Assembly: GCA_009602735.1 (NCBI GenBank)
Contig: WELA01003054.1
Coordinates: forward strand, 302,555-366,554
Source of the DNA: Mesotaenium endlicherianum
Taxonomy: Eukaryota
Length of the DNA stretch: 64,000 nucleotides
Direction: 5' to 3'
Below, piece after piece: positions 26,721 through 54,804 of the stretch. Position 1 is the stretch's first letter; each line of letters opens with the position of its first letter. The position numbers and the translations under genes are program-made. A model generated the notes under the pieces. It was not told the origin of the DNA. It did no database searches and worked only from the letters and a program-made list of their open reading frames with translations.

Positions 26721-29252
26721 CTACATCTTTCCAAAGCCACTACCAGTGGAGCTGGTGGTGGTAGGCCCAGTAGTCGAGTTGCCAACAACAGGTGCTGTTG
26801 TGTACTCGGCAGTCGTGTATTCAGTGGTTGGTGTAGACGTGTTGGTCAAGCCAGTAGTGCCAGTGGGAGAACTAGTTGTCTGTCCACCTTTAGGCCCCCC
26901 AATGACTGCCTCTTTCACATACTGTGCTGTCTGTGAGAGGGTCTCACCTGCAGACTGAAGAACCGACTGTGTGTTCCTCTTTGCAGCCTCTGCAGTGTCA
27001 CTTGTTGCGTGCCCTGCCTGCTGGCTCTGCTGGCCTACCTTCTCCTGTGTAGAGTCCAGTGTCTGTCTCAGACTATCACCTGCTCTGTTACCTTCCTGTG
27101 CTGAGAAGTCTCTTGCCTCACCAGCCTTGTTCTGAGCAAGCCCAATAGTTTCCTTCACACCTTGCACCACTCCTCCAAGGGCCTGAACTGTCTGCTCATA
27201 GAGATGTCCTGTCTTCTCCTTTGTTGCCTGGTAAGTGCTCTGCGTCGTCTCCACCGTTCTATCCTTGGCAACCTGAGCTGTATCCGCTGTGTAATTCTTA
27301 GCATCAGTTAGGACCTGCTTTGTTTTGTCAGCAGCTGAGTTGTAGGTCTGACCAGCATAATCCTTGGCACTTCCATATGCCTGGCTGGTCTTGTCAGCAG
27401 TGACATCATAAGCCTGCTTACTTTTCTCAGCTGTAGCATCATAAGCCTGCGCAGCATAGCCCTTCGCTCCCTCATATGCCTGCTGGCTTTTGTCAGCAGA
27501 GACATCGTATGCTTGCTTGCTCTTGTCAGCAGTAGCATCATACGCCTGCCCAGCATAATTCTTTGCACCCTCATACGCCTGCTGGCTCTTGTCAGCAGTG
27601 ACATCATATGCTTGCTGGCTCTTGTCAGCAGTCACATCATAGGCTTGCTTGCTCTTGTCAGCAGTAGCATCATATGCCTGCCCAGCATAGTCCTTTGCAC
27701 CCTCATACGCCTGCTGACTCTTGTCACTGGTCACATCCGCTGCTTGCCTAGACTTGTCTGCCGCAGCATCAGCTGTCTGGCCGGTGTAATCTTTGGCACT
27801 GTCATATGTCTGCTTGCTCTTGTCAGCTGCAGTATCCAAAGCAGATGATGTTTTATCCTTTGCTTGCTGAGCTGAATCACCTACTTGGTCACGTGCCTGC
27901 CCATAACTGTTTTGGCAGACAATAAAACCTAAATTAGATATATATGCTCTTTGACTGTTTACAAAGCATCGTACACAGACAGCATAAAACTGCTTTTGAG
28001 CATTAATGCAGACTACGGCAGTGCAAATCAAGCAGACGAATGGGCAAAATGTTCAGATACATGCAACTATCAGCTATCAACTTCCAGCTTTTAAGCTCTC
28101 ATAAATAACACAAAGTGTACTAAAAGACATAACAAGACAAGGAAGTTGTCAATCCACGCCTAAAATGATGGTGAATTTTTTTAGTGAAAAGTTTACCTCT
28201 TTGACGTAGTGTCCTGCGCCGAGCTCAAGTAGTCACCAGTTTGGTCTTTGCCCTTATTGTACTGCTGGGACAAATTGTCCTGGGCAGAGTCTAAGTACTC
28301 TCTAGTGTTTCCCTTTGCCTTTTCATAAGAATCAGCAGCAGAGACCTTGAGTTCTCCAAGCTTGTTTGCTGCTGCATCAGCGTAACTTCCCACCTTGTCC
28401 TGAAACGCAAAGCAGAACTCACATCAGGTGTATTCAGATGGAAGTACTTAACTACATAAGATGAGTCACAGCCATTCCACCAACATGTAAAGAGGACCAT
28501 GTAAAGAGAACGTGTGTTTACCTTAGTTTGCTCCTTTGTGTCCTGAGCAGGACCCTTGTATTCCTCAGTCTTGTCTGCAGCATATTGCTTTGCCTGCTCA
28601 TATCTTCCTTGAGCACCCTGCAACACGTAAAGAATCGAAAGTATATCAATTAGAAGGATAGCATACTCTGTACATCAGATTTTCATGAGAGTCTTGCTTT
28701 AAGAGAAAGTACACATACACCGTATTCCTGGCAAGCCCCACGCTACAAACTACAGGAGAGCTGCAACTTTTCCCACGTTGAGGCTTCCATGAACGTTACC
28801 TGCAGAGCCTCCTGGGCCTTTGCTTGGGCAGCATTGCGGTATTGACCTATGGTCGCATTGGTGGCATCATAAGCAGTCCCAGCCTGCATATGTGACAGTA
28901 ATTAGTTAGCCTGGGTAAGTATTAAATTTATACAACAGAAGTAGTCCTCTGTCAGGTCTATTATATAACACGCTAAATGACATACATATTGTAGACTCTG
29001 GTATCGGCTGCCACTACAATCAAAAAGCATGATTTGACACAGTAACTATGGCCAAGGTATAACTGTGCCCCAAAACAATGCAGATGTCCTGAACCGAAAT
29101 GAACCCAATTGGGAACCGGCACCACTAAACGTTTCTGCATTAAGTAATCATAAGGAAGATATGAGAAAATTATAGCGAACCTGCTTGTTTCCCTCTTCAG
29201 CAGCCCCCTTCGCCTGCTGGTCAAAAGGCTTCGACTCTTGGTAAGACGACAT
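26721..29252 (-). CDS. Late embryogenesis abundant (LEA group 3 / LEA_4-like) hydrophilin, ~546 aa, 5 exons
   Basis: Exons 29252-29181 (MSSYQESKPFDQQAKGAAEEGNKQ), 28883-28800, 28617-28522, 28399-28197 and 27906-26721 are all GT-AG and join in frame. A/K/Q/D/T-rich, with tandem 11-mers AYDATADKSKQ / AYEGAKDYAGQ / AYDVTADKSQQ. Confidence 0.85.
27330..27830 (-). repeat. 33-nt coding tandem repeat array (LEA 11-mer motifs)
   Basis: Recurring units such as gcctgctggctcttgtcagcagtgacatcata at 33-nt multiples. Confidence 0.8.
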
Positions 29253-30532
29253 GACTGCTTGACAAACTTTCAGAACACGGTCGAAAGAAGGTAAATAGGC
29301 GAGCGCTTAGTGTAAAAAGTTGGGTATCCCAGGGTTAACTTATCGATAAGAAAAGGTCACAAAAAGATGAACTGAATTTACACCTGTGGATGAAGCATCT
29401 TATATGCCTGGAGTGCCCTGGAGCAGCCTGGAGTGCTTTCTGTATAGAGCTCCACGAACAGCGCAGGGTGAGGCTGACTTGGGCTGACTCAACAGGCGGA
29501 GCACACCAGAGCACACCTCTCCTTCATGCGCAACGCGGCAGCTGATGTGTAAGCACTATCTTAGTGGCATGCCACCTAGCACGCATGAGTACGTCCGCGT
29601 ACTTGAGCTCGTGACCATGTTGATACATGTTGGCAGCTCGTTAGATTACTGTGGATGCTGGTCGCTTATTCCCGGCGTTGCCCTGAACCGAAGCTAGCTG
29701 GCAGGTGCCAGAAGGTACCAGAAGGTGCGTAGTTCCAGTGAGGCCCAGCTGAGGCCCAGGCTTCCAGCCTAATTCTGACAAGGTACGACGAGGAAGCGCG
29801 AGATCTGGCAAACATTTGGCGGGTTGTGAAAAGCTGTGGGTGGCTTTTGAGCAGTATGCATGTAGGTTGGAGATGTCTCCAGCACGCAAGTTTCCCCAAG
29901 TTTTCCCATGTTTTCCACCTTTTTATGGCAAATTTTGGCGCCCGCATATTTCTTCTTCTTCATCTTCCTTCTCCCATCTCCTCACCTCGCTTGCTGAGTC
30001 AAATCCTCTCATTTCTTACTACATGCTGCTCACATTTTGTCATCCACTCTCTAAAAGCCTTCTTTATAAAGCATTTTAATGCACAGTAACTCTGTATTTA
30101 TCAGCTCTCGGTCATACTTTGTCTTCAATCGCGTGAGTTTCTCTGGCTGTTCCTTCTGTCTCGACTGCGGTCACTGTTTGCATGCAGAGGGCGGCAAGGA
30201 ATTTTGCTTGCCGCAGGTTGAATGTAATGGCAAGGCCCAAAATTTTGCACCGGGGGCTCTCTCTCCCTGGTGAGTGCATGCTGGCGGCTGAAATTTCTGC
30301 AAGTCAAGTCCTCCGAACTGCCGCGTGGCTAGCTGCCCCGTGCTGGCTTAATCTGCAGACAAATTGATAGGCGGTAGCTTTGGTTGTGGTGTGTGCACGC
30401 TTCATCACTAAAATTATGCAGAGTTAATAAGACATGCCTGCCTTCCTTAAGCCTCAAAAATGTGTATCTCATTCTATTCTTTTTGTATAATGTGTAGGCG
30501 AAATGTGATTATGTTTAAAGTCTCGTTCTTTT

Positions 30533-31370
30533 CAGGTTGATTGTACTCGATATTCTCGTCATCCTGGTTCTCCATGTCTCGGGAGTTGCTAGTTTGAGAC
30601 CTTGTCCTTACCATACAAATAAGACTGTGATAACTGCTCCGATACCACTGAAATGAATTGTCTTACCAAATAGGCGATTAACAATAAATGAAGATGTTTA
30701 TATCAGCAAGTAATCTTTATGGATTTTCCGTTTCTTGGTTAAACGGCAAAAGGACAACACACTAGCAGTGAACAATACTCGTAAGTCAAATGCGAGTAAA
30801 CTAGCATCAATAATGCAATCAGTAAAACTCATACATAAGCAAGGTTAGAAGACAGTGCGTATCAATGGCTTCTCGCCTTGGATTCAGCGCTCTCTCAGTA
30901 GGCGATACAAGAGAGTTGGCCTCGTTTCCGAATGCCAAACTCGAGAGCAATGCCTAGCATATGTACATGGAATGAGTTTACTGTTCAACGGCCAGTGCGA
31001 TGGCACCGCCTACCCGGGAGTTAACCACGTTGGTAGGACCTCGGTTAACCAAATCCACCGCCATCTCCCATCATCCCGAATCGCCATCCATCATAGGGAT
31101 GTCATCTGGCCATTCATCTAGCATATCACACTTAGATGCATATCGAGACAGTTCGGTTCTACCGAGAACGGAAGTCAGCTGGCTGTCAAAGAATGTGTCA
31201 GCAAGCGAACTTAAGTTGACTTCAGCCTGCTGCTTCCGGCTGAGTCATTAAGCTACTATTAAATATAAAGTCCAGCAGACTGATTATTTAACTAGAGTTC
31301 ACCAGGCTGAACATGATTAACTATTATATTTGAATGAATATTATATCTACTAATATACTGATTCATTACA
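30533..31370 (-). mobile_element. Family A Ty3/Gypsy remnant A0: 5' LTR (30649-31370), PBS and the first ~80 bp of gag
   Basis: LTR termini TGAAATGAAT...GATTCATTACA (+ strand). PBS TGGTATCGGAGC on - strand (30636-30647). gag start MVRTRSQTSNSRDMENQD is cut at ~30533. Confidence 0.85.
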
Positions 31371-33861
31371 GGGGAACTGTCTTTCCTGACTTTCGCATTG
31401 TTCTCCTGACTTAGCAAAGAAATGTTGGACATCAGGTGGAGCAAGAGCATCCAGATTGTGCACTCTCTGGATGTCTATATTGCTGATGGTCCCCTTTATT
31501 TGGTTGTCAGGCATGCATAGTGAATCCAATTCAGCAGGACCCATAATACCTGCTACGAGGGCAGCTAGTGACGACTCACTATCTCTAGCATCCTCACAGT
31601 CAGTAGACTGGATTACTGACTGTTGCTGTCTTTTAAAGGCTGGTCTTTTCTCTCGACCTTCGGAAGGTGCTTGACTGGACACTGTTCTCTGTAGTGGCCC
31701 AACTGCCGACAATGGTAGCAAATCAATTTTGATGAGGCTGGTCTCGGCTTAGTCCTACCACCACCTCTTCCATAGCCGCCTCGAGAGAAACCACCTCTAC
31801 CTCTAGACTGAATAGCATTGTACTCATACTCATATTCATCACCCTGATTATCCTCAGCCTGGTCTCCTTCAATTGCATTGTAGGAACCGTGGGGCTTTTT
31901 GACAATCTTAGACACCAAAGCATTACTCTGGCGCTTGTGATTGAACTGCTGCTGATCCCAGGCATCAGCATCCTGGATCAAGTTAGCCAGTTTCTCATAC
32001 TTCTTTTCAGCGAAATGACCAGAGACTTCGGATTTCAAGCCATACCTGAAGTACGCTATCCTACACCGTTCTGGCAAGTCTGGCTGTTTCATCATATTCT
32101 CCTGGAACTTTTGAGCAAACTCAGCAACTGAAGTGGCCTGCTTCAGTGTCAGGGAGATCATCCCATAGATAGCTTTCTCCTGCTGGTTGATGACATCAAA
32201 CTTCTCATGCAACTTCTCGACAAACTCTACCCACGTAGGGTCACCGAGTTGCTGAGCCTTACGCTCTCCTTTCCAGTATAGCCACCAGTCTGCGGCACTG
32301 CCTTTCAGTATTGCACCAGTGTGCCTGACCTTCTTGTGATCTTGCAGTTCTAGGTAGTTCTCCAGCCACTGCTCAACATCCGCGAGAAACTTGATCAGGT
32401 AATATTTTCTGTTTCCCTCAGGATCATAGTCCTGGGGAGGTTTCGGCTTGGGCTTACTAGGCCCTCTGCCACCACCAGTAGTGGTTTGAGACCCCAGTNG
32501 TAGTGGTTTGAGAACCCAATTGGTCTCTGTCCTGCAGTAGAGACATTATGATTCTTTTGTCCTCCTGTTGGGACTGATACATGGTCGCCATTTGAGACTG
32601 CATGTGAACAAACAATGCTCCCAAGTCTACACTTTGGAGTGGGAGTCTAGCAAATGCAGCAGCAGCAGTGGCATCTACTTGGTGAGTAGTGTCCTCAACA
32701 GTCTCTCTCGCTCCTGCAGCAGCAATTCCTGTCGCATTCAGCCGGTCACGAATTTGACCTAGGGGTACATTGAGTTGTACAGCAGGAGGTGGGTTCATAA
32801 CATTGGCCCTTGATGCCATAAGTTCTTCGACAGTGTGCTCGTCAGCTGGCTGTCCTTCCCTCCTTTCTGTATCTACAGCGGCCAATGCTAATTGTTCAGC
32901 TTCTAATCTGGCTCTCCCTTCCTCAGCTTGCTGTGTTGCGACTGCGGCAATAGCAGCTGCCTCATCTGCAGCCTCTCTAGCTGCAGTATCTGCCACTGCT
33001 TCAGAATAGGTACGGGTTTCCGCTACATGGCTTTCCGCCTGGTTTTCGACATTCTCATTATCCTGGTTCTCCATGTCTCGAGAGTTGCTAGTTTGAGACC
33101 TTGTCCTTACCATACAAAGAAGACTGTGATAACAGCTCCGATACCACTGAAATGAATCGACTTACCAAATAGACGATTAACAATTATTAAAGATCTTTAT
33201 ATCAGCAAGTAATCTTTATGGCATTTTTCATTAATTGATGAAACAGCAAAGGATAACACACTAGCAGTGAGTAATACTCGTAAGTCAAATGCAAGTAAAC
33301 TAGCATAAATAATGCAATCAGTAAACTCATACATACAAGGTTAGAAGACAATGCGTATCAATGGCTTCTCGCCTTGGATTCAGCGCTCTCTTAGTAGGCG
33401 GTACAAGAGAGTTGGCCTCGTTTCCGAATGCCGAACTCGAGAGCAATGCCTAGCATATGTACATGGAATGAGTTTACTGTTCAACGGCCAGTGCGATGGC
33501 ACTGCCTACCCGGGAGTTAACCACGTTAGTAGGACCTTGGTTAACCAAATCCACCGCCATCTCCCATCATCCCGAATCGCCTTCCATCATAGGGATGTCA
33601 TCTGGCCTTTCATCTAGCATACCATACTTAGATGCATATTGAGGCAGTTCGCTGCTACCGAGTACGGAAGTCAGCTGGCTGTCAAAGAATGAGTCAGCAA
33701 GCTGACTTGAGTTGACTTCAGCCTGCTGCCCCCGGCTGAGTCCTTTAAACTGATAATCATATAAAGTCGAGCAAACTCAATACTACATAAAGTTCAGCAA
33801 ACTCAACTTAATTAACTATTATAATTAAATGAATAATATAGCTACCCATATACTGATTACA
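31371..33861 (-). mobile_element. Family A copy A2, truncated: 5' LTR (33148-33861), PBS, gag and start of pol; interrupted by A0 at 31370/31371
   Basis: gag 33113-31613 is near-identical to A1 gag (zinc knuckle CYHCRQLGHYREQC). The break near 32499 coincides with an N and a duplicated overlap. The LTR abuts family B RNase H sequence at 33862. Confidence 0.88.
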
Positions 33862-35073
33862 GTGCTGGTCACTACGGACCACGACGCGTTGAAGCACCTC
33901 CAGACGCAACCGTATCTCTCAAGGAGACAAGCAAGATGGATCCGATACTTGCAACAATACAACATCACGATTCAGTACCAGCCCGGCAAGACAAACCCGG
34001 CTGACTCCCTCTCAAGACTGCAATTAAACGCAGTGATGACATCCCTGAAGACAGATCTGGAAGCTCGATTTTCAGCCGCCTATGAACGAGACCCTTACTA
34101 CAAGAACGGAGAAGCAGCCTTGGACCCATACAAGAAGCAAGAAGGCAATTATTGGGTGAGGCAAGATACGGGCCATAGATGTGTTCCTGATGACTTAGAC
34201 CTCCGGCTCTTGCTTCTACGAGAAGCACACGACAACCCTTGAAATGAATCGACTTACCAAATAAGCGATTAACAATTAATAAAGATCTTTATATTAGCAA
34301 GTAACCTTTATGGTATTTTCCGTTTAACTGGTTTAACGGCAAAGGACAACACACTAGCAGTGAATAATACTCGTCAGTCAAATGAGAGTAAACTAGCATC
34401 AATAATGCAAATCAGTAAACTCATACATAAGCAAGGTTAGAAGACAGTGCGTATCAATGGCTTCTCGCCTTGGATTCAGATCTCTCTCAGTAAGCTGTAC
34501 AAGAGAGTTGGCCTCGTGTCCGAATGCCGAACTCGAGAGCAATGCCTAGCATATGTACATGGAATGAGTTTACTGTTCAACGGTCAGTGCGATGGCACCG
34601 CCTACCCGGGAGTTAACCACGTTGGTAGGACCTCGGTTAACCAAATCCACCGCCATCTCCCATCATCCCGAATAGCCATCCATCATAGGGATGTCATCTG
34701 GCCATTCATCTAGCATATCGCACTTAGATGCATATCAAGGCAGTTCGCTGCTACCGAGTACGGAAGTCAGCTGGCTGTCAAAGAATGTGTCAGCAAGCTG
34801 ACTTAAGTTGACTTCAGCCTGCTGCTTTCGGCCGAGTCATTAAACTGATAATTATGTAAAGTCCAGCAGACTGATTATTAACTAAAGTTCAGCAGGCTGA
34901 ACTTAATTAACTATTATATTTAAATGAATATTATATCCACTAATATACTGATTCATTACAATCCCTCCAACTTAACTTGTTGTCGCCTCGACAACATTAA
35001 ACTGCAAAAGCTTTAAATAAAGAAACTGACCCTGACCAGCCTCCCTTACTGACTATCTTTTCAGCCTGTCACC

Positions 35074-36750
35074 TTAAGGGGTGGTTCCTGGGGCTTCAGG
35101 ATCAGGGGACGGAGATCTGGACCTAGATCTGGACAGCCCTCTAGGTCTGTCAGCTGGCCTTCTAAAGAACCCTGTTTGCTCTAAAGTTGGCCCTCGAGGA
35201 GAACGGAGGATGGTGGCCTGCTCTTCAACTATTTGGGTGTTGATTCCCACATAGACAGGCATTCCAGTAGGATGCTGAAATACATTGGCTAGAGGTACAT
35301 GCCCCTGAGCGGAGGGGGAGGCTGGCATACCTCTGGCCCACCCGCGTGTCCCTCTTCTGGCACCCCTGTCCTCTGGGGATTTCTGCCTGTGTCTGCTGCC
35401 CAGTACAGTCAGATCAGCTTCTTCCCCTGCTTGGGCAGGTGGGCTGGGGGAGCGAGCGCGGGGTCCAGTTGTCGCCATAACGGGGATCACATTCCACACA
35501 CCTGATCGTGGTTCTTTAGGAAGTGCCACTGCCTGTCCCTGGGTATCCTGAGTACCTGCTGCTGATGCTTCTCCTCTGCCTTGTTCTTCTTCCTCATCCT
35601 CCTCATCCTCCTCCTCGGAGAGAGTAGGGGTCTCGTCCACTAAGTCGTCCTGCTCCCTAGTAGACATGGAGTAGTCTACCGACCTCCCTTTCTTAGGGCG
35701 CGCTGGAGGTTGCTTGGCCTTCAGCCTACTGATATCTATCCGGCCTGCATTCTTTGCCCATTTGACAAAGGCATGCTTTCCCTTAGAGAAGTAGTCTCTT
35801 CCCCTCCTCCTATGTTCCTTGGTCTCTGCATTCATATTGCTCAGGCATCCATTCAGCCTGGGGTCCCAAGGGGCAATGTGAGGTGGTAGGATGAGATAGC
35901 CGTCTAGGCCATAGTGGAAGTCATCCGGTTGGGCTCGGTCACACTCCTGCTTCTTATTTGTGACGGTCATCCACCTCCAGTCTGTTGGCTGCTGGTAGTA
36001 CTGGGGTCCGTGCTCAGCCTTCCTCAGTTTACACGGGAACCAGTGGGGAGAGAACATCTGCTGTCCTGCTTCCCTGGCCAAGTACTCCCAGCTCCTTCTC
36101 TCAACTTCATTGTAAGCTGGCAGGAGTGTGAGGTAGAATACCGTATCCTTAAAGCTATCGGGCCGCATGCTCACCATCCGGATGAGTCTCTGATCTCCCA
36201 CTATTCCCGGTATGGGGACCGGCTTGTCCTCTGAATCATCTGCGAGATACCGGGCCTGCTCTGCTGTATAGCCCACCATCTTAGCATAATCTTCGTAAAG
36301 GACCACGCCGGTGTGTGTCTCGATGTACCTGTCCAGTGCTGTAGCTCCTTCCTTCTGTAGCAGTGTTGTCTGTTCCAGCCTGTTGATCTCCTGGGCTGCC
36401 AGCAATGCTTCCTTCAGGTTATCGAAGTTTTGGCCACCCACCACAGTATACCTGTAAGTGGCCAAGCTCTTCTGTCTGTCCGCTTCAATCTTTTTTCTTT
36501 TCTCCTCTTCTGCCGCTGCCGCTTCTTCTTGCTGTTTCTTCTGTCTCTCCTCCTCAGCCTTCCTGAGGTTTTCCGCTTCCTGATCCTTCTTCCTCTGTGC
36601 CTCTTCTGCCGCCTCTTGTTGTTTGCGGACCCTTTCTTGTTCTCTCCTGGTGAGGGACGTCGCCGCCAGCTCCTTCTGGTATTGCTCCATTGTCCTCCTG
36701 GCTTCTTCTGCCTTGCGCTTTCTGTCCTCCTTTTGTGTGGTGGGCGCCAT
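35074..36750 (-). CDS. Accessory ORF3 of element A1, unknown function (~558 aa): coiled-coil N-terminus, aromatic-rich core, acidic tract, RS/P-rich tail
   Basis: Uninterrupted ORF (35074-36774; ATGs at 36759 and 36750) between the pol stop (37018) and the PPT/3' LTR, same sense as gag-pol. Confidence 0.75.
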   Translation of the reverse strand: MAPTTQKEDRKRKAEEARRTMEQYQKELAATSLTRREQERVRKQQEAAEEAQRKKDQEAENLRKAEEERQKKQQEEAAAAEEEKRKKIEADRQKSLATYRYTVVGGQNFDNLKEALLAAQEINRLEQTTLLQKEGATALDRYIETHTGVVLYEDYAKMVGYTAEQARYLADDSEDKPVPIPGIVGDQRLIRMVSMRPDSFKDTVFYLTLLPAYNEVERRSWEYLAREAGQQMFSPHWFPCKLRKAEHGPQYYQQPTDWRWMTVTNKKQECDRAQPDDFHYGLDGYLILPPHIAPWDPRLNGCLSNMNAETKEHRRRGRDYFSKGKHAFVKWAKNAGRIDISRLKAKQPPARPKKGRSVDYSMSTREQDDLVDETPTLSEEEDEEDEEEEQGRGEASAAGTQDTQGQAVALPKEPRSGVWNVIPVMATTGPRARSPSPPAQAGEEADLTVLGSRHRQKSPEDRGARRGTRGWARGMPASPSAQGHVPLANVFQHPTGMPVYVGINTQIVEEQATILRSPRGPTLEQTGFFRRPADRPRGLSRSRSRSPSPDPEAPGTTP

Positions 36751-37017
36751 CCTGCACATGTAACCAGGGCACAAGTTAGTAGGATATGGACCTTTGTCAT
36801 AGGGATTGCAGGAAGTATGTTAGTATTTAGTATAGTGGCTTCGCTGCTGTTTACCTTACAGGATGATTGCTAAAAGTTGACGTAGTTGCGATGCGCTACA
36901 CATAAACGTATGAGTGTGTTTTTATCGCTCTCGCTCACTAACTGTCATATATTTTCCCCTCCAACTTAAATGGAGACAGGACCGCCTGTCACCTTCCCGT
37001 GTCAACTGAAATGACAG

Positions 37018-40000
37018 TTATGGAGGGACTCCAGCGGCCCGAAGGTGGAACCGTGTCAACGCCCCTTTGGCATTGGTCAAGTGGTCCTTAAACTCCCAAG
37101 TGTCCCCAGAGGCATCGTAACCCTTCCATCGAATGAGGTATTTCATGACATATTTAGACGATCGACGGACCGAGCGAGCGTCTAAAATCTCATCGACCTC
37201 ATATTCCTCAGGGTCGCCGTCCCGGACAGCGGGGACCGGTCCCGGTTGGACAGGGAACCGACCTGTGAACAGTGTATCACCTTTGATGTACGGTTCCAGG
37301 AAGGAGACATTAAAGACCGGGTGCCCCTTGTATTCAGCTGACATGTTCAGTTTGTAAGCATTCTGACCGACACGACGGACCACCGCATATGGACCGACCC
37401 AGACAGGGCCAAGTTTTTTCTTGAGCACACCAGGGAGGTACAGGTGCTGAGAATGCAGTTTGACTAAATCCCCCTTGGAAAATGTCAGTTCCCGACGGTG
37501 TTGATTAGCGTATTTTTGTTGGTTTTCTTGGGCCGTGTGCAAGTTTCGTTGGACTTCTGACAGGGTGTCAGCAAACTCCTGAGTTAACTGGAGGGAGACC
37601 GGGTTGTCAATCCCTTCAGGGTGAGTTAAAGATTCCCCTAGCACATCTAAAGGAGACTTAGGGACTCTACCCAGGCTGAGTTCAAAAGGAGTCTTGCCCG
37701 TTGACGCGTGCACCGCACTGTTGACCGCAAACTGAATTTGAGGCAACAGGTCATCCCAATTATCTTGTTTTTGGTTAATATATGCTCTCAACACCTCCTG
37801 CAGAACTCGGTTAGTTCTTTCAGTCTGCCCATCGGTCTGAGGGTGGTTTGCTGTGCTGAGCAGCTGTTTGACTCCCATTAACCCCATTAAAGCTCTCCAG
37901 AACTTAGAGGTGAATTTTGAGTCTCTGTCTGAGATGATATTAGAAGGGAGCCCATGTTGGCATACTACATGGTTGTAAAACTGTCTCGCTGTTTCGAGTG
38001 CAGTCACTTTGACAGTTGTGGGGATAAAAATGACCATTTTTGTCAGTTTATCCACGACTACCAGTATTGAATCATGCCCGTTGGCAGTTCTTGGTAGTGA
38101 GACCACCCAGTCCATGGATATAGTTTCCCAGCGTCCCGCTGGGATGGGTAGCGGTTGCAAGAGACCTCCGGGTGGTGTGTGCCGAGATTTATTTCTCTGA
38201 CACTGGTCACAGGACTTGACATATTTCAATACCTCCCGGGGTAACCCCTTCCAATGATAATGTTTTGCCAATTTGCCAACAGTTTTGGCCTGCCCCAAAT
38301 GTCCACCCAGGAGACTGTCATGAGCTTGACTCAGTAAGAGAGACCTTATTTCCAAATTATTAGGAATGACCAGCTTCAGCCTGCCTGAAGTGGTTTCAGA
38401 CACCCAGACCCCCCCCTTGAGCTTATACCCGAGTGCAGTAGCACAATACATACCAGTAGTGGGGCTGGGCTCAAATGTTGGGTCAGAAAAGTAGGCTTTC
38501 CTAAGTTGTTCAAGGAAGGACTTTTTCACCTTTAGTGAAGTGAGTGCACACAGGACTTTATCTACAGTATGCTGACTAAAGTTCCTTTCTTGCAAGTCAG
38601 GTCTTCTAGAGAGTGCATCAGCAGGATTCAACTTCCCTGGTTTGTAGTCGATCTGGACTTGGAACTGCTCCAGCATCTGGCTCCAGCGGTTCTCCCTCCT
38701 CGACAGCTTGGACTTCTTCTGAAAGTGGGTCAGAGCTAGATGATCTGTAATCACCTTAAAAGCTTTACCATGTAAGTATGCTCTCCACTGTTTGAGTACA
38801 TGAATGATAGCTAGCAGCTCTTTATCATGCACTGAGTAATTAATCTCCGCTGGATTAAATTTCATAGACTCATACAACACAGGATGCCACTCCTGCCGTA
38901 CCTTACCATCCTTTGTGGTTTTGTCAGCAGGCTGCAACAAAATAGCACCCATGGCAAAATCAGAGGCATCAGTAACCACCTGCACCGGTTTGCTGGGGTC
39001 ATACACGGCTAGCACTGGGGCAGAACAAAGGGCATCTTTAAGGGTCTGGAAGGCAGCCTGCTGCTCTTCCCCCCACACATACCCGATGTCTTTCTTAGTA
39101 AGGTCAGTCAGTTTACTGGCCTTTGTGGAATAATTCTCAATAAATCTCCTATAGTAGTTAGCCAACCCGAGGAAGGATCTAACTTCAGAGACAGACTGTG
39201 GTACTGGCCAGTCCCTTATGGTCTGGACTTTCTTAGGATCCACACTGATGCCCTCTTTACTGACAACGTGGCCTAAGAATTCAATACTTTCCTTAAAGAA
39301 ATCACACTTGCTCATTTTAGCATACAAGTGATTTTTCCGCAGAGTGTCCAGCACTTTCTTTAAGTGTTCAGTGTGCTGAGCTTCATCTTTAGAGAAAATT
39401 AAAATATCATCCAGGAAAACTTGCACAAACTTATCCAAATAAGGTCTGAAAATGTCATTCATAGCACCCATAAAGGTAGCAGGAGCATTAGTCAGTCCAA
39501 ATGGCATCACGTTGAACTCATAGTGTCCATAACGTGTGCGGAAAGCAGTCTTGTGTTCATCCCCCTCAGCAATTCTGATTTGATGATAACCACTCTTGAG
39601 ATCTATCTTACTGAACACCTTAGCGCCAGACAGGGTATCAAGCAAGTCCTCGATTCTGGGTAAAGCATACTTGTTCTTTACTGTAATTTTGTTCAGGGCT
39701 CTGTAATCCACACACATCCGCATGCTGCCATCCTTATTCTTAACAAATAAGGGTAGGTGCGCCGTAAGGTGATTTACTGGGGGAAATGTAACCATTTTCC
39801 TCAAGCTCTGCAATCTGTGTTTTCAATTCCTCGCTCTCCACATAAGACAAGCCATGAGTGCGTTGCCAGGGTGGCTAACTCCCAGGTAATAAATCAATCC
39901 TATGATCCACTTCCCTCTTAGGGGGTAGTCCTGGAGGCATATTAAATACATCCGTGTACTGAGCAACAATGTTTGCAGCAGTAGGGTGCTCCGGAGGGTG

Positions 40001-40828
40001 TACCTTTTTCTCAACCACTTCTTCAGGTTGAGGAGGTACCTCTCTTTGCAGCAGACAGAAAATTCTGTCTTCCTTCTGGTTCCAGCTTTTGACGAACTCC
40101 ATTGCATTCAGCAACTTGCATCCTTCTGGAAGCCTCTTCTTTTCCTTCATTTGCCATCCACACAGGACAAGAGGAAGAGCACTGGTGGGTGCCAAGTCAG
40201 TCTGCCCATCACTGGCTCCTCTCACTTTAACTGTACCTCTGCTCCAACACACTTCAGCTTGATGTCTATTAAGCCAGGACCTGCCTAGCACGAGATCATA
40301 AAAGCCAGTGTTGAGTACCTCAAATGTAAGCGTTTCAGTTAGAACTGCAATGCCAGAACCTAACTGGACCTCAATAGGCTTGGTTATAACTCCTCCCGGG
40401 ATACTTGAGGCATCTCCAAGGAATATTTTTCTATTCCCTTGGGTGACAGTAGGCAGCCTTAGCCGCTTAACTAAGTCCTTGTGGATAAAAGTATGTGACG
40501 CCCCTCCGTCAACAAATGCCCTCACCTTCCTACCTGCAATCATGCAATGCAGTAGGATAGGGGGGACTGTCTTTTCCTGACTTTCGCATTGTTCTCCTGA
40601 CGTAGCAAAGAAATGTTGGACATCAGGTGGAACAAGAGCATCCAGAGTGTGCACTCTCTGGACGTCTATATTGCTGATGGTCTCCTTTATCTGGTTGTCA
40701 GGCATGCATAGTGAATCCAGTTCAGCAGGACCCATAATACCTGCTACGAGGGCAGCTAGTGACGACTCACTATCTCTAGCATCCTCACAGTCAGTAGACT
40801 GGATTACTGACTGTTGCTGTCTTTTAAA
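37018..40828 (-). pseudogene. pol: A1 pol (protease, RT, RNase H, integrase, chromodomain) with a premature stop and a 1-bp frameshift
   Basis: Protease [23 protein letters not shown]; RNase [15 protein letters not shown] integrase plus GPY; chromodomain [11 protein letters not shown]...[16 protein letters not shown]. In-frame TAG at 39875-39877 (PGS*PPWQR). Extra base near 39751 ([12 protein letters not shown]). Confidence 0.92.
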
Positions 40829-42282
40829 GGCTGGTCTTTTCTCTCGACCTTAGGCAGGTGCTTGACCGGACACTGTTCTCTGTAGTGGCCTTTCTGCTGA
40901 CAATGGTAGCAAGTAGATTTTGCTGAGGCTGGTCTCGGCTTAGTCCTACCACCACCCCTTCCATAGCCACCTCGAGAGGGACCACCTCTACCTCTAGACT
41001 GAATAGCATTGTACTCATACTCATATTCATCACCCTGATTATCCTCAGCCTGGTCTCCTTCAACTGCATTGTAGGAACCGTGGGGCTTTTTGACAATCTT
41101 AGACACCAAAGCGTTACTCTGGCGCTTGTGATTGAACTGCTGCTGATCCCAGGCGTCAGCATCCTGGATCAAGTCAGCCAGTTTCTCATACTTTTTCTCA
41201 GCAAAATGACCAGAGACCTCGGATTTCAAGCCATACCTGAAGTATGCTATCCTATACCGTTCTGGCAAATCAGGCTGCTTCATCATGTTCTCTTGGAACT
41301 TTTGAGCAAACTCAGCAACTGAAGTGGTCTGCTTCAGTGTCAGGGAGATCATCGCATAGATAGCTTTCTCCTGCTGGTTGATGACATCAAACTTCTCATG
41401 CAACTTCTCGACAAACTCTACCCACGTAGGGTCACCGAGTTGCCGAGCCTTACGCTCTTCCTTCCAGTAAAGCCACCAGTCTGCGGCACTGCCTTTCAGT
41501 AGCGCACCGGTGTGCCTGACCTTCTCGTAATCTTGCAGTTCTGGGTAGTTCTCCAGCCACTGCTCAACATCCGCGAGAAACTTGATCAGGTAATATTTTC
41601 TGTTTCCCTCAGGATCATAGTCCTGGGGAGGTTTCGGCTTGGGCTTACTAGGCCCTCGGCCACCACCACTAGTGGTGTGAGACCCCAGTTGGTCTCTGTC
41701 CCGGAGTAGGGACATTATGATTCTTTTGTCCTCCTGCTGGGACTGATACATGGTCGCCATTTGCGACTGCATCTGAACGAACAATGCTCCCAAGTCTACA
41801 TTTTGGGGTGGTAGATTAGCAAATGCAGCAGCAGCATTGGCATCTACTCGCTGAGTAGTGTCCTCAACAATCCCTCTTGCTCCTGCAGCAGCAATTCCTG
41901 CCGCATTCAGCCGGTCACGTATTTGACCTAGGGGTACATTGAGTTGTACGGCAGGAGGTGGGTTCAGAACATTGGCCCTTGATGCCATAAGTTCTTCAAC
42001 AGTGCGCTCGTCAGCTGGCTGTCCTTCCCTCCTTTGTATATCTTCAGCGGCCTTTGCTACTTGTTCAGCTTCTAGTCTGGCTATCTCCTCCTCAGCTTGC
42101 TGAGCTGCGACTGAGGCAATAGCAGCTGCCTCATCTGCAGCCTCCCTAGCTGCAGTATCCGCTACTGCTTCCGAATAGGTACGGTTTCCCGCTACATGGC
42201 TTTCCGCCTGGTTTTCGACATTCTCGTTATCCTGGTTCTCCATGTCTCGGGAGTTGCTAGTTTGAGACCTTGTCCTTACCAT
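40804..42282 (-). CDS. gag: A1 Gag (492 aa) with CCHC zinc knuckle and RGG tract
   Basis: LLKGSAADWW capsid motif; CYHCQQKGHYREQC; starts just after the PBS. Confidence 0.9.
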   Translation of the reverse strand: MVRTRSQTSNSRDMENQDNENVENQAESHVAGNRTYSEAVADTAAREAADEAAAIASVAAQQAEEEIARLEAEQVAKAAEDIQRREGQPADERTVEELMASRANVLNPPPAVQLNVPLGQIRDRLNAAGIAAAGARGIVEDTTQRVDANAAAAFANLPPQNVDLGALFVQMQSQMATMYQSQQEDKRIIMSLLRDRDQLGSHTTSGGGRGPSKPKPKPPQDYDPEGNRKYYLIKFLADVEQWLENYPELQDYEKVRHTGALLKGSAADWWLYWKEERKARQLGDPTWVEFVEKLHEKFDVINQQEKAIYAMISLTLKQTTSVAEFAQKFQENMMKQPDLPERYRIAYFRYGLKSEVSGHFAEKKYEKLADLIQDADAWDQQQFNHKRQSNALVSKIVKKPHGSYNAVEGDQAEDNQGDEYEYEYNAIQSRGRGGPSRGGYGRGGGRTKPRPASAKSTCYHCQQKGHYREQCPVKHLPKVERKDQPLKDSNSQ

Positions 42283-45200
42283 ACAAAGAAGACTGTGATA
42301 ACTGCTCCGATACCACTGAAATGAATCGACTTACCAAATAGGCGATTAACAATTAATAAAGATCTTTATATCAGCAAGTAATCTTTATGGTATTTCCGTT
42401 AACTAGTTAAACGGCAAAGGACAATACACTAGCAGGGAATAATACTCGTAAGTCAAATGCGAGTAAACTAGCATCAATGATGCAAATCAGTAAACTCATA
42501 CATAAGCAAGGTTAGAAGACAGTGCGTATCAATGGCTTCTCGCCTTGGATTCAGATCTCTCTCAGTAAGCTGTACAAGAGAGTTGGCCTCGTGTCCGAAT
42601 GCCTAACTCGAGAGCAATGCCTAGCGTATGTCCATGGAATGAGTTTACTGTTCAACGGTTAGTGCGATGGCACCGCCTACCCGGGAGTTAACCACGTTGG
42701 TAGGACCTCGGTTAACCAAATCCACCGCCATCTCCCATCATCCCGAATAGCCATCCATCATAGGGATGTCATCTGGCTATTCATCTAGCATATCGCACTT
42801 AGATGCATATCAAGGCAGTTCGCTGCTACTGAGTACGGAAGTCAGCTTGCTGTCAAAGAATGTGTCAGCAAGCTGACTTATATGGACTTTCAGCCTGCTG
42901 CTTTCGACTGAGTCAGCAAACTGATAATTATGTAAAGTCCAGCAGACTGACTAAAGTTCAGCAGGCTGAACTTAATTAACTATTATATTTAAATGAATAT
43001 TATATCCACTAATATATTGATTCATTACAACCCTCTTGGAGGACAATCTGGAATCCTAAAGACCACGAACGTTCTAGCCAGGACTTATTGTTGGCCACGC
43101 ATGTCTAAGCAAGTCAAGGAGTACCGCAGGAGCTGTGACACACGCCAAAGAATCAAGCCATCATCGCAAAAGGCGGGAGGACTCCTCCAACCACTATGAA
43201 TCCCCGAAAGACAATGGACGGACATCTCAATGGACCTTATCGTGGACCTGCCCGTGACACCTCGAGGCTATAATGCAATACTCACGGTGGTGGACAGACT
43301 TACCAAGATGGCTCATTTTATTCCCACGACCACAAAGGCTACAGCACCACAACTTGCAAGACTCATCTTTGACAACATCTTCCGACTCCATGGACTACCA
43401 TCAAGAATTGTGTCGGATAGAGATCCAAGATTCACAAGCCACTTTTGGAAAAATCTCTTCAAGAACTTGGGTACATCGCTGGATATGTCCACTGCCTACC
43501 ACCCGCAATCAGATGGGCAAACCGAGCGTATGAATTGTACCCTAAAGACCTCCCTAAAGGCCTAAATGTCTACTCTGGAGCACGATTGGGACATGTACTT
43601 GACCCCCCTGGAGTTTGCCTACAACAACACGACGCAGGCCTCTACCCAAGAGTCCCCATTCTTCCTCAACTATGGCTTCCATCCAACCACGCCGCTGAGC
43701 TTCACGGCTGGCCATGATGAAGTACCTGCAGCAACAAATTCAATGGAGACATTAGAAGCGGCCCTTACAGCAGCGAAACAACAGGCGCAAGATGCTCGAG
43801 CAAAAGTCGCAAACAGGTCCAGAAGAGAAATTACGTACAGAGTGGGTGACAACGTGTTACTATCATCCAAGAATATTTCTCTAAACAATAGGCTTGCCGG
43901 CAGCAAGTTCTCTCCCAAGTATTTGGGACCCTCAAGATTATCCAGCAAGTCAACCCCGTTGCTTTCAAGCTAGAACTTCCCCAGACTATGCACATCGATC
44001 CCGTATTCCACGCTTCCCTCTTCAAGCCATATGTGCAACCCGACAACAAGTTCCCAGGACGTGTGACAACCCCACCAGCCCCAACAATAGTGGATGATCA
44101 TTTGGAGTACGAAGTGGAAGACATAGTGGCTATGAGAAATTTCAGGAGACAGCAGCAATACTTGATCAAGTGGAAAGGATATCCAGATTCGGAGAATAGT
44201 TGGGTGGCGGCGCACTACCTTGACAAAGTTCAGAGAAAGCTGAAACGCTTCCATGCCGCCAACCCCCATCTTGGACCAGCCCCAAGTCACTCTACTAGAA
44301 GCCCAAAGCCTTCAGGGGGGGCAGCCTGCCACCATCAAGAAGCAGCAGAAGAACCCTTGGAGGCAGCCTGCAAGAACAAGGAAGAGGAAAAATTGACATT
44401 AGACACTCTTCTCTTCTCGCAGTTTCGGGACAGAAAACTAAAACTGCTACTGGTGACAGGTCTCTGCATAATAAATTTTGAAAACTTACCTGGCTGTAGT
44501 CCATGAGTAGCCGGTCATTTAGAGTCCAAGTTTGCTCAATTTGGAGCACTGGCGAGAGAGATATGATGCTCTAAGTAGCAGGGGGTCAGGCTNCAGGGGG
44601 TCAGGCTGCTGGCATTATTAGGGCAGAATATGCCTTCTGACATTGTGCCCTCCCCTGAACTTGAAATGCTCTGAAACTCAAGGCTCTGGTAGAATATCTT
44701 ACAGCGCCCATTTTGAGACTTACTTTGCAGAATTTGGAGAAGTAGAGAAGGACTCATGATTTTCAGAAGTTTCTGCACAGATTTGGAGTGCCTACTCTCT
44801 TAGCTCTCAACGACACACCAGAAATCAGAATGCTCTCAAATTTGGTGAACCGGTAGAGTTTTTTGACGCGGTCTGTCTGGCACTCAGATTTGGAGCAGTT
44901 CTGTGGACGCTATGAATTTTTGAATTTGTGGCAGATTCTGGGCCAACTTGTACAATTTTCTTTATCATCAAGGAGTAGGCTACCCAATAAGGTCACACCA
45001 CCCACGACCTTGCCTAGTCTACCTTACTAGCACCTGACTTGGCGCCTTTGGCTAATCCTCTTCACATGTGTGGCATCTGACTTGAAGCTGATGACTAGTC
45101 TACTCCACATGTGTCAGACCTGACTTCACGCGCCGAGACGTCGCTTTTTCTGTCAGGGGGTGATGTAGTGATTTGAGTTATAATATATTAGTTGGCATAT

Positions 45201-45665: not shown

Positions 45666-47631
45666 GCATAGCATTATACTCAGACTCATACTCATCCCTC
45701 TGATCGTCCTCGGCCTGATCTCCTTCAATTGCATTGTAGGTATCATGTGGCCTTTTGACAATCTTAGACCAAAACATTACTATAACGCTTGTGATTGAAC
45801 CGCTGCTGATCCCAGGCATCAGTATCCTGGCTCAAGTCAGCCGATTTGTCATATTTCTTTTCGGACTTCAAGCCATACTTGAAGTATGCTAGCCTATACC
45901 GCTCCGACAATTCCGGCTGCTTCATCATGTTTTCCTGGAACTTTTGAGCAAACTCAGCAACTGAAGTAGTTTGCTTCAATGTCAAGGAGATTGTCGCATA
46001 GATAGCTTTCTCTTGCTAATTGATAACATCAAACTTCTCATGCAGCTTCTCGACAAACTCTACCCAAGTGGGGTCACCGAGTTGTTGAGCCTTACGCTCT
46101 CCTTTCCTATACAGCCAGCAGTCTGCTGCACTGCCTTTCTGTAGAGCACCAGTGTGCCAAACTTTCTCGTAGTCGTGCAATTCTGGGTAGTTCTCCAGCC
46201 ATTGCTCAACATCAGCGAGAAACTTGATCAGGTAGTTCTTTTTGTTTCCCTCAAGGTCATAGTCCTGAGGAGGTTTTGGCTTAGGCTTACTCGACCCTTT
46301 GCCACCACCACCAGTGGTTTGAGAACCCAGTTGGTCTCTGTCACGCAGCAATGCCATCATGATCCTTTTGTCCTCCTATTGGGATTGATACGTGCTCGTC
46401 ATTTGCGATTGCATTTGCACAAGTAATGCTCCCAGATCTACATTCTGAGGTGGTAGCCCAACAAACGCAGCAGCAGCAACATTAGCTCAATTAGTAGCAG
46501 CTTCGGCATTCCCGATTGCTGTCGCTCCGGCTATGCCTGTTGCACTCAGTTGTCTGCAAATTTGAGGGAGAGGTATGATAGTAGGCACATCAAGAGGTTG
46601 GTTTCGAAGATTGGCCCTCTCAGCCATCTGCTCTTCCACCGTCCTTTCCTCAGGGGCCCTCCTGTTTACTGCCTCTTCTATCTCCTTGGCTAAACGCTCA
46701 TCCTCAGCAAGCTGAGCTGCTACCGCAGGAAGAGTTGCTGCCTCCTCTGCAGCTTCTCTGGCTCCTGCATCATACAGCGTTTCTAAGTAGGTACGGGGTC
46801 CTCAGACGCCGCTTTCGTCTTGCCCTTCCGCAATGTTATCATAGTCCTCACCCTCCATTTCACAAGAGTTGCAAGCTTGAGACCTAGTCCTTACCATACA
46901 AGACGACTGTGATAACCAGCTCCGATACTATTGAAATGAATCGACTTACCAATAGGCGATTAACAATAAATAAAAGATCTTTATATCAGCAAGTAAATCT
47001 TAATGGTATTTTCTGTTAACAGCAAAAGATAATATATCAGCAGTGGACAACACTCCCTAGTCAAATGCTAGTAAACGAGCATCAACTATGCCATCAGTAA
47101 ACTCATACATAAGCAAGGTTAGAAGACAGTTCGCATTAATGGCTTCTCGCCTTGGATTCAGATATCTCTCAGTACGCGGTACAAGAAAGTTGGCCTCGTT
47201 GTTGAATGCCGAACTCGAGGACAAGACCTAGCATATGTACATGAAATGAGTTTACTGTTCAACGGCAAGTGCGATGGCACCACCTACCTGGGAGTTAACC
47301 TCGTCGGTAGGACCTCGGCTAAACAAATCCACAGCCATCTCCCATCATCCCGAATTGCCATCTACCTCAAGGGTGTCATCTGGCCATTCATCTAACACAC
47401 CACACTTAGATGCATAACTAGGCAGTTCGCTGCTACCGAGTACGGCGATCAGCTGACTGTCAAAGAATGTGTCAGGATGCTGACCTTAGTCAGCAAGCTG
47501 ACCTAAGTTGACTTCAGCCTGCTGCTCCCGGCTGAGTCATTAAACTAAGTATAAGAATCCAGCAAACTGAACTAATTTAATTATTGTATTTGAATGAATT
47601 TTATATTTACTCAATATATTGATTCATTACG
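45666..47631 (-). mobile_element. Older family A copy A3: 5' LTR (46932-47631), PBS and degraded gag; interrupted by B2
   Basis: gag fragments (KPKPKPPQDYD, TLKQTTSVAEFAQKFQ) with stops. Diverged LTR ending GATTCATTACG. The B2 LTR sits inside gag at 45665/45666. Confidence 0.85.
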
Positions 47632-48491
47632 TACGTTCATCAGTTTCCCAAGTTCATGCAATTTATATGGACAATCAGAAGATTAGGGATTGCAAGCTTT
47701 CAACAGCCTGAAATGCGTTCACCCGCACGGCCATAATGGCACAACAATTTCGTCCTCATTCCTAGCAAACGCGTAAGGTGTGGCGTAGAATTGAGTCCTA
47801 TTGTAGTGATTTGAGTTATTATATATTAGTTTGCATATATTTTAATGTTTTCAAATATATTTGGAGTAGTATTGTGTGGAGTCAAGTGTGAATAGGTACT
47901 CTAGTAACTTGGTTCATGTCCTTTGAACCTTCTAAGGCATTTTCGAAGTTAGAGGAAAGACCTAGAAGAACTCCATGGGGTAAAAGTCAAATGTGCCATT
48001 TTTAGGTCAAAAGAACATGTGTACATTATTCTAGAAAGAGGTGGCAAGTTTTGGGATGTGTTGGATGCCAACACATCAACATACACTTTCCTAGAAATTA
48101 CTTATGTAGCAAGTATATAAACAAGAGCTAGAACATAGAAAGACATTCGAGAATCACTCTTGTGCTTGCCAAACTCTAGAAATATATTAACTTTCAAGAA
48201 GCCATCTCTCTTTCAAGAAGCTACCACTTGTGTTCAAAAATCCTTGTCTTGAATAGATAAAGTATTCTGTTTTACTAAGTACTTTATCTATCTGTTTCAC
48301 TACAGTGGTATCGGAGCTAGGCACTTTGGTAGCACAAGAAGATGGCCGATCCTCAAGACCAGCAGCAAGCTTTCGAAGGAAGCCCTTCCCTTCCAAGACA
48401 CCCTCCTCCAGCGTCGATGGGAGAGCCCACTCAAGAAAATCTGCAATAACAAGAAGCACCACAAGGAGGAGTACACCCTCCTCCAGCGCCG

Positions 48492-49622
48492 ATGGGAGAG
48501 CCTACTCAAGGAAATCTGCAACAACAAGAAGCACCACAAGGAGGAGCACCGTCAAATCCCGTGGCAGCCGCTATAGCAAAGTTGACCCCACCACAAGGAG
48601 TTCCCGCAAATGAGTGGGCAGCCTTCCTAATGACCGTCCACAACCAAGTGGGCCTGGCCACCTATGAAGCAACCGTGCAAGCGTCAAGAGAAGCTATGGC
48701 TGCCATGGTTGCCCCTATTGCGAGCAATGCTCAAAATCCAGCCCCGGCTCAAGCGCCTCCACAAGAGCCAACGAGAGCAAGGCAACTCATCAAGCCCGGC
48801 AAACCCGACTCCTTCAACCCCAGGAAAGGTGCCAACCTGAATTTATGGCTCTACCAAGTGGAGACGTACCTCGCGTTCCTTGAAGTACCCGAGGAGGACT
48901 ACGTTCCCTTTGCCGTTACCTTACTTAGAGGAGCAGCAACATCATGGTGGCGTAACTATCAAGCGGCTATATATCAAGCTATGGCGCACCCCATGCTCGG
49001 CCAAGAGCCCCCACCATCATATGCAAGATGGGCAGATTTTCGTGAGGCCCTCAAGAAGCAATTCATGCCCATCAATGCGGAGAAGATTGCCCGAGGAAAG
49101 CTCCACCATCTCAAGCAAACGACGTCCGTTCAAGAGTATACATCCAGATTTCACGCCCTCACTCTTGAGATCCCCAACATGTCTCTCGAGGAGAAGATTG
49201 ACCGTTACATCTTTGGCCTCAAACCCAAGGTGGCAAAGGAAGTGGAATTACGCGACTTGACGGACTTCTCAAGGATCATTGAAGTGGCCCAAAAGCTGGA
49301 TACCTTGGATTTCAAGCACTCCGTACCTCCATCTTCACGGGTTCCGGCGACGCGGGTGTACGCAGCCCCTTCCACATCTGAATCTGGACCCACACCCATG
49401 GAAATTGGAGCTATTAAAAGGGACCCCGCGGCTGCTCGGAAGAGTGGAAGACCCTCCAATGACACTTATGATGCAAGAAACCAGCAAGGAGTGAAAGCAA
49501 GACTCTCCCCGGCTGAAAAAGAAGCTCTCATGACGACTGGACCTTGCTTCTATTGCAAGGAAAAGGGCCATCGTGCACTCTCATGCCCCAAAAAGTTGTC
49601 AAAAAACGGACAGCGCCGGTAG
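48492..49622 (+). CDS. gag: B1 Gag with zinc knuckle
   Basis: [32 protein letters not shown]. An upstream in-frame ATG at 48342 is cut off by TAA at 48447-48449. Confidence 0.88.
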
Positions 49623-52600: not shown

Positions 52601-53206
52601 GATGCTCAAGCAAGAGTGGCGAACAGATCCAGAAGAGAAATTCCGTACAAAGCGGGTGACAACGTGTTACTATCATCCAAGAATATTTCCCTGAACAACA
52701 GGCCTGCCGGCAGCAAGTTCTCTCCCAAGTATTTGGGACCCTTTAAGATTATCCAGCAAGTCAACCCCGTTGCTTTCAAGCTAAAACTTCCCCAGACTAT
52801 GCACATCGACCCCGTATTCCACGCTTCCCTCTTCAAGCCGTATGTGCAACCCGACAACAAGTTCCCAGGACGTGTGACAACCCCACCAGCCCCAACAATA
52901 GTGGATGATCATTTGGAGTACGAAGTGGAAGACATAGTGGCTATGAGAAATTTCAGGAGACAGCAGCAATACTTGATCAAGTGGAAAGGATATCCAGATT
53001 CGGAGAATAGTTGGGTGGCGGCGCACTACCTTGACAAAGTTCAGAGAATATTGAAGCGCTTCCATGCCGCCAACCCCCATCTTGGACCAGCACCAAGTCT
53101 CTCTACTAGAAGCCCAAAAACTTCAAGGAGGCAGCCTGCCACCATCAAGAAGCAGCAGAAGACCCCTTGGAGGCAGCCTGCAAGAACAAGAAAGAGAAAA
53201 AATTGA
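49601..53206 (+). CDS. pol: B1 Pol, uninterrupted (protease, RT, RNase H, integrase, chromodomain), -1 frame relative to gag
   Basis: [37 protein letters not shown]...[47 protein letters not shown]. Confidence 0.95.
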
Positions 53207-54178: not shown

Positions 54179-54804
54179 TGTACTGAATCAGTATATTGGT
54201 AGATATAATATTTATTTAAATATAATAGTTAAATAAGTTCAAACAGCTGAACTTTAGTTAATATTGAGTCTGTTGGACTTTATAAAATAATCAGTTTAAT
54301 GACTCAGCCAGGAACAGCAAGCTAAAGTCAACTTAGGTCAGCTGACACATTCTTTGACAGCCAGCTGACTTCCGTACTCGGTAGCAGCGAACTGCCTAGA
54401 TACGCATCTAAGTGTGATGTGCTAGATGAATGGCCAGATGACATCCTTTGCATGGATGGCAATTTGAAATGATGGGAGATGGCGGTGGATTTGGTTAACC
54501 GAGGTCCTACCAACGTGGTTAACTCTTGTCGTTGAACAGTAAACTCATTCCATGTACATATGCTAGGATTGCTCTCGAGTTCGGCACTCGGAACCGAGGC
54601 CAACTCTCTTGTACTGCTTACTGAGAGATATCTGGATCCAAGGCGAGAAGCCATTGATATGCACTGTCTTCAGGCCTTGCTTATGTATGAGTTTGCTAAT
54701 TGCATTATTGATGCTAGTTTACTTGCATTTGAAGCATTTGACTTGCGAGTATCGTCCACCGCTAGTGTGTTGTCCTTTGCTGTTTTATCAATTAACAGAA
54801 AATA
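54179..54804 (+). mobile_element. Partial family A LTR in opposite orientation, fused to family B 3' UTR
   Basis: Begins TGTACTGAATCAGTATATT (reverse complement of the A LTR end). Switches to B UTR tcttctcttctcgcag at ~54805. Confidence 0.85.

Follow-up and report, generated by a model that had tools for sequence, protein, structure and literature searches.

The window, a 64-kb stretch of DNA, contains a complete LTR retrotransposon of the Ty3/gypsy type, here called A1, which is bounded by a TSD and occupies positions 34240 to 43029 of the minus strand (Table 1). A1 is a chromovirus by its LTRs, TSD, PBS and PPT, by the order PR-RT-RH-IN of its pol domains and by its chromodomain. The latter lies at the integrase C-terminus, matched PF00385 above the cut-off (E=1.3e-8) and, as read by eye, has kept the Y/W/Y aromatic cage residues. 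The LTRs are ~720 bp long each and have TG...CA ends; 25 of 711 aligned bases differ between them (K2P 0.036), from which ~0.018 substitutions per site were calculated since the insertion of A1. The PBS is one that we take to be tRNA-Met-like.

Table 1. Features of the retrotransposon A1 and their positions in the 64-kb window
Feature	Position	Strand	Remarks
TSD ACCCT, left	34235..34239	.	A1 interrupts the integrase of a copy of family B; the flanks match pol of this family
3′ LTR	34240..34960	-	686 matches and 25 mismatches against the 5′ LTR
PPT TTAAGTTGGAGGG, adjoining the 3′ LTR	34963..34975	-	
12-mer AAGGTGACAGGC, second copy of the post-pol 12-mer, overlapping the ORF3 stop	35064..35075	-	
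ORF3, 558 aa	35074..36750	-	
Candidate 103-nt leader intron	36752..36854	-	Predicted from splice signals
Internal exact PPT copy, 13 nt	36957..36969	-	
12-mer AAGGTGACAGGC, just 3′ of the pol stop	36984..36995	-	
pol, PR-RT-RH-IN-SH3-chromodomain, broken	37018..40849	-	
Predicted gag/pol -1 frameshift signal	40779..40828	-	T TTA AAA and hairpin
gag, 491 aa, open; Ty3 capsid and CCHC knuckle	40807..42282	-	
PBS TGGTATCGGAGC	42305..42316	-	
5′ LTR, with candidate splice donor in the U5 end	42317..43029	-	
TSD ACCCT, right	43030..43034	.	

The pol gene of A1 is interrupted by a TAG at 39877-39875 and by a frame change near 39750-39743. At the gag/pol junction (40828-40779, minus strand), a T TTA AAA heptamer is followed by a hairpin with a 10-bp perfect stem, and an identical signal is present in a second copy (31637-31588, minus strand). 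The identity of the signal in two copies is as expected of a programmed -1 shift, unlike the pol lesions, and we predict that pol is expressed from gag in this way. Another hairpin, with 8 bp perfectly paired, lies directly before the 3′ PPT (34976-35000, minus strand).

Truncated nested copies of the same family, family A, were found at 30547-33858 and 45668-47630; they consist of gag and LTRs only, and one is ~92% and one ~77% identical to A1. Further pieces derived from family A LTRs lie at 54179-54805, 59444-60162 and 61142-61334. In a chromovirus of a second family, family B (47800-56069, plus strand), gag is open and the pol frame, which includes a chromodomain, extends over 1229 codons. 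A piece of a family A LTR lies in the 2.3-kb 3′ region of this element, where ORFs of 170 or more codons are absent. The retrotransposon cluster is adjoined by a host LEA_4 gene (26721-29383, minus strand) with five predicted introns, which encodes 546 aa and contains 33-nt tandem repeats. The host introns are of the GT-AG type, and we regard the host as probably a green alga or a non-seed plant. An exon of a host RdRP-family (RDR-type) gene was recognized at 16628-17251 on the plus strand (Pfam, E=1.5e-17), in a GC-richer region with CA/GT-repeat introns, and a 292-codon open frame at 62720-63595 (plus strand) had no Pfam match.

The nearest full-length Pol relatives of A1 showed ~50-52% identity. 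A FastTree tree was calculated from 39 Pol sequences, comprising A1, the best 30 of 87 full-coverage matches, the named ones and family B. In this tree A1 clustered with five Closterium proteins and two others (support 0.90); no labelled reference elements, for instance of Chlamyvir or Tcn1, were part of the tree. With the group I chromodomain chromoviruses, that is Chlamyvir, Tcn1 and their relatives in algae, mosses and fungi, A1 shares the organization PR-RT-RH-IN-CHD, the aromatic cage and the 5-bp TSD. According to the REXdb publication (PMC6317226), most Tcn1 members have overlapping gag/pol frames and part of the Chlamyvir members have a tRNA-type PBS, as is the case in A1.

An earlier note on this DNA had described a sense ORF of ~560 aa in the env position of a TSD-bounded chromovirus. 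Such an ORF, here called ORF3, is indeed present between pol and the 3′ LTR and comprises 558 codons (36750-35074). The frame is open from 36819 to 35077, the working ATG lies at 36750 and the stop codon at 35076-35074; the end at 36774 that had been proposed falls within the open frame, 8 codons before the working ATG. The motifs quoted from ORF3, such as HWFPCKLR, WRWMTV and RSRSRSPSP, were all found in the protein. Its residues 1-94 form a charged helical N-terminus with an NLS-like RKRK, residues 95-350 an aromatic/Cys/His core and residues 351-395 an acidic run, followed by a Pro/Arg/Ser-rich tail ending in RS/SP repeats. The NLS-like, NES-like and RS words are regex matches of a kind that is frequent by chance. 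A BLAST comparison of ORF3 with itself revealed no internal repeat, and CpG depletion does not set it (0.39) apart from gag, pol and a host exon (0.26-0.49).

The first 94 codons of ORF3 are purine-rich and nearly free of stops in all six frames, as would suit a chance open frame in low-complexity sequence, but in the core of 256 codons every one of the other five frames contains 4-15 stops. When regions of 2057 nt were simulated with two Markov models, the longest stop-free runs were 277 and 324 codons, respectively, and in each model 0 of 3000 simulations reached 581 codons. These results effectively refute a chance origin of the frame, the probability of which we regard as negligible.

The maximal hydropathy of ORF3 over 19 residues (KD19) was only 0.73, which argues against a TM helix, and the N-terminus is charged; judged by hydropathy, the protein has no obvious signal peptide or TM helix, as had been stated before. 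It also contains no N-glycosylation sequon and no match to the furin-like word R-x-K/R-R. The lack of all three, hydrophobic segment, sequon and furin-like word, speaks against an Env protein and supports the view of the earlier note that ORF3 is not Env-like. We therefore consider it very improbable that ORF3 encodes a structural protein that is Env-like or comes from a virus, such as a remote coat protein of a filamentous virus, even though it occupies the env position, its predicted spliced expression (see below) would be env-like, and the Atlas clusters Poty_coat (0.85) and Flexi_CP (0.83) were matched with a low score. Atlas matches for ORF3 in the range from 0.83 to 0.91 are at chance level, and the PDB provided no sequence match in support. 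The coat-protein lead was followed with profiles of 32 flexi-type and 77 poty-type coat stretches and was dropped, as these gave no match to the ORF3 core and the hhalign scores (13.2 and 16.4) were within the range of 30 shuffles; the positive control of the profiles was weak (43 of 77 one way and 6 of 32 the other way at P<0.01), which leaves room for a very remote link.

Searches with residues 95-350 of ORF3 gave 0 matches at E<=0.001 among 1.84 billion representatives, 0 matches among 3576 candidates from a 5.8-billion set, in which proteins of 306-977 aa were covered, and 0 matches in 5 viral and 78 metagenome stretches. The PDB yielded a single match with E=0.97, and the best E value against PHROGs was 0.15. 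In Pfam, the best matches of ORF3 (Obc1_C and Borrelia_P83) were below the cut-off, and the profiles of Athila ORF-1, PMD, Transposase_28, DUF390, AlkB and DAM did not match; the claim that ORF3 matches no described accessory family thus stood at the Pfam cut-off. A comparison of the core with 120 Pol matches gave a best E value of 0.23, and the eight longest tails 3′ of the chromodomain among the Pol matches were either further pol pieces or unrelated. Two single-sequence AlphaFold models of ORF3 had pLDDT values of 34.2 and 34.8 and no usable fold; a Foldseek search with the first model gave nothing at E<=0.001, a result that carries no weight at a pLDDT of ~34. For residues 200-491 of the A1 gag, 0 of 3086 candidates matched. 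Since gag gave no match as well, the family may simply be absent from the databases, and the orphan status is weaker evidence about ORF3 itself.

The 270 nt that separate the pol stop and the ORF3 ATG contain stops in all three frames, so that ORF3 is unreachable by readthrough from pol and this route was ruled out. A candidate acceptor of the host type, TGCAG/G, is located one base before the ORF3 ATG, and a candidate donor, TAAG/GTAAACAG, lies at 36854, 103 nt upstream of the acceptor. Branch-like TACTAAC motifs occur at 36825 and 36781, the nearer one ~25 nt from the acceptor; two of the three occurrences of TACTAAC in the window (both strands) fall into this leader, and the combination of TGCAG/G and branch motif is found once in A1, at the ORF3 ATG. 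The neighbouring host LEA gene served as yardstick, as its introns 2-5 lead to an open protein of 546 aa; its intron 1, deduced from signals alone, would lie in the 5′ UTR, with its end two bases upstream of the ATG. The donor 11-mer of the ORF3 leader equals the donor of LEA intron 4, and the acceptor is identical to that of LEA intron 2 at nine of the last ten bases. A relaxed version of the three splice signals was obtained in 130 of 100000 shuffles of the leader, in a test that was designed after the signals had been seen. A further candidate donor, TTG/GTAAGT at 42334, lies in the U5 end of the 5′ LTR and is present in all six LTR copies examined (of eight LTR-derived pieces), in a part of the LTR that is conserved anyway. 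The candidate donors rank third and fourth of 355 GT sites when scored with approximate frequencies. Either donor, 36854 or 42334, would yield an ORF3 mRNA, and judging from these signals we consider splicing to the acceptor at 36752 likely; the donor would be either 36854, in which case transcription would start at an internal promoter, or 42334 in the LTR.

It had been emphasized that ORF3 is fully open while pol of the same copy carries a stop and a frameshift. The observation was confirmed, whereas the idea that it reflects a special retention of ORF3 did not hold. The probability that ORF3 is free of stops at the LTR-derived age is 0.31 (substitutions only), the probability that two random pol lesions both miss ORF3 is 0.58, and gag is equally intact. 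A copy with a damaged pol and an undamaged ORF3 is what one would expect at the age of A1, and nothing in A1 shows selection on ORF3 after insertion. The intactness of ORF3 in A1 does, however, imply that the frame was open in the parent element. No second ORF3 is present in the 64-kb window, in which no other family A piece extends to the interval between pol and the LTR, and five related loci (L001-L005), which end within ~1.4 kb of pol or are short contigs, contain no sense ORF of 150 or more codons starting after pol.

The stretch of 71 nt that follows the pol stop has two exact words in common with the 116 nt downstream of ORF3, namely the 12-mer and the 13-nt PPT (Table 1), and they come in the same order in both; in a shuffle test, 7 of 20000 shared any 12-mer. 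In synonymous GC3 (GC3s), gag (0.482) and pol (0.464) show no difference (p=0.44), whereas ORF3 (0.556) departs from both (p=0.012 and p=3e-5, respectively) and agrees with family B (0.545, p=0.26). Because of the duplicated PPT and 12-mer and the differing codon usage we read ORF3 as an acquired cassette, which was probably captured and added at the 3′ end of the element beside the PPT. Its source would have had other codon habits and was perhaps another retroelement. The earlier note had left it at 'captured or element-evolved'; the GC3s difference from gag and pol and the PPT duplication favour the first of these origins, and a donor was not found.

ORF3 might also be a mere passenger, that is, a gene, or a 3′ fragment of another mobile element, that was captured not long ago, exists in one or few copies and is useless to the element. 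A recent arrival is suggested by the PPT duplication and by a codon usage unlike that of its own gag and pol, intactness needs no selection at this age (P 0.31-0.58), none of the searches revealed a relative of ORF3, and ORFs that were transduced and occur in one or few copies are on record (PMC7264820). We nevertheless regard the passenger as a somewhat unlikely explanation, as the cassette comprises a whole gene together with what look like expression signals and went through at least one round of retrotransposition, which follows from the two LTRs and the TSD of A1. Moreover, a reverse-transcribed host mRNA would be expected to have lost the leader intron, and no cellular homologue was found among the 1.84 billion representatives.

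Chlamydomonas REM1 reportedly has a third ORF that is antisense and encodes PHD and chromo domains, in contrast to the sense ORF3 of A1. PMC6673714 cites REM1 and contains a remark on PHD. By position, orientation, a length of more than 250 codons and the lack of a known domain, ORF3 resembles the extra ORFs termed eORF-3′F or aORF-3S (PMC6317226, PMC7264820), which are defined as separate sense ORFs that lie between pol and the 3′ LTR, have 250 codons or more and contain no tandem repeat, a definition that covers ORF3. According to REXdb, eORFs occur in 3372 gypsy elements and are mostly without known domains, only 21.4% of their proteins match CDD, and 3′ sense extra ORFs are found in 18% of 782 Tekay elements (PMC6317226). 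The REXdb summary table lists no extra ORF for Chlamyvir (44 elements), Tcn1 (1500), Reina, Galadriel and CRM, and the per-element file may have rare cases (PMC6317226). In a chromovirus survey, a figure that shows fungal and spikemoss gypsy elements includes the label 'add. ORF' (PMC2864245). The statement that extra 3′ ORFs are unusual for chromoviruses was therefore too strong in view of Tekay and of this label, but it agrees with the summary table with respect to Chlamyvir and Tcn1. Within the class, env-like eORF-3′F members have a TM helix, which ORF3 lacks, and A1, as the bearer of ORF3, has a full aromatic-cage chromodomain. For the extra ORF of Bagy2, spliced expression is described (PMC7264820). 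A literature search, conducted for the most part outside subscription papers, found no paper on a 3′ sense ORF in a group I chromovirus of an alga or non-seed plant. From these comparisons, 3′ sense extra ORFs are a known class, and the ORF3 protein itself appears to be new.

Two systems outside plants offer further parallels. LTR elements of bdelloid rotifers have independently acquired non-Env ORF3s, including type CC, typically expressed from spliced messages; several of them carry GDSL or DEDDy enzyme domains, whereas the ORF3 of A1 has none recognizable (PMC5408684). The CERV protein of the C. elegans element Cer1 has 517 aa, is translated from a spliced mRNA and is required for the export of genomic RNA (PMC10309623). 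Like ORF3, it is a non-Env protein, and the two are similar in size; CERV has no obvious homologue outside nematodes. With a helical part at its N-terminus, a Cys-containing region and candidates for NLS and NES, it has a layout that is comparable to that of ORF3 by description (PMC10309623). The two differ in that CERV shares exons with gag and its export role has been shown, whereas ORF3 has its own ATG and a role in export can only be deduced.

The function of extra ORFs in plant LTR retrotransposons is an open question (PMC7264820). An element that is copied via RNA and has internal splice sites must keep its genomic RNA unspliced, and we therefore propose an RNA-handling factor. In this proposal, a cassette carrying ORF3 would have been acquired next to the PPT, ORF3 would be translated from an mRNA spliced at the predicted sites, and the protein would be soluble, enter the nucleus and let unspliced A1 RNA avoid splicing or reach the cytoplasm in the manner of CERV or Rev. 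A nuclear location of the protein, taken for itself, is somewhat more probable than its opposite. The RNA-handling role, proposed after the example of the Cer1 protein CERV and of Rev in HIV, is the most speculative element, and the proposal as a whole is tentative, even if it is the best of the readings we considered. The charged, oligomer-like helix, the NLS- and NES-like words, the RS/SP tail and the CERV-like layout led us to place RNA handling first, followed by the passenger and then by a function on chromatin. Protein, PDB and Pfam searches gave no homologue or domain pointing to RNA binding, and since most chromovirus clades in the REXdb summary have no extra ORF listed, such a factor would not be generally needed.

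The same anatomy might also belong to an accessory protein that is maintained for an action on chromatin or on silencing, in anti-silencing or targeting, as the earlier note had suggested. The acidic run and the Cys/His residues of the core would fit such a protein, the host encodes an RdRP-family gene, and nuclear aORF proteins and epigenetic domains are described for plant and algal LTR elements (PMC11728184, 10.64898/2026.05.21.726589, PMC7264820). However, Pfam gave no match to a chromatin, methyltransferase, PMD, Transposase_28 or zinc-finger profile, and nothing examined points to binding of DNA or histones, so that we judge a chromatin function unlikely.

Extending the preferred RNA-handling reading, a group I chromovirus of a green alga or non-seed plant may have taken up a gene for a protein of new fold by a PPT-bounded swap, may express it from a spliced RNA and may use it to switch in a Rev-like manner from spliced to genomic RNA and back. 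This reading is quite improbable; if true, the strategy of a 'complex retrovirus' evolved independently in the green lineage. If ORF3 proves to be family-wide and selected, 3′ sense accessory genes would extend to the aromatic-cage chromoviruses, for which the REXdb summary has none, and a protein for which no relative was detected would be added. At present, ORF3 amounts to a single orphan ORF from a single element copy, and orphan status is typical of its class. With its intact frame, young age and definite predicted splice sites, ORF3 lends itself to direct tests of its transcript and of its influence on the fate of RNA. Extra domains were also seen in the related chromovirus Pol proteins P0036 and P0114, which carry PF00692 and PF00856, presumably dUTPase and SET, respectively.
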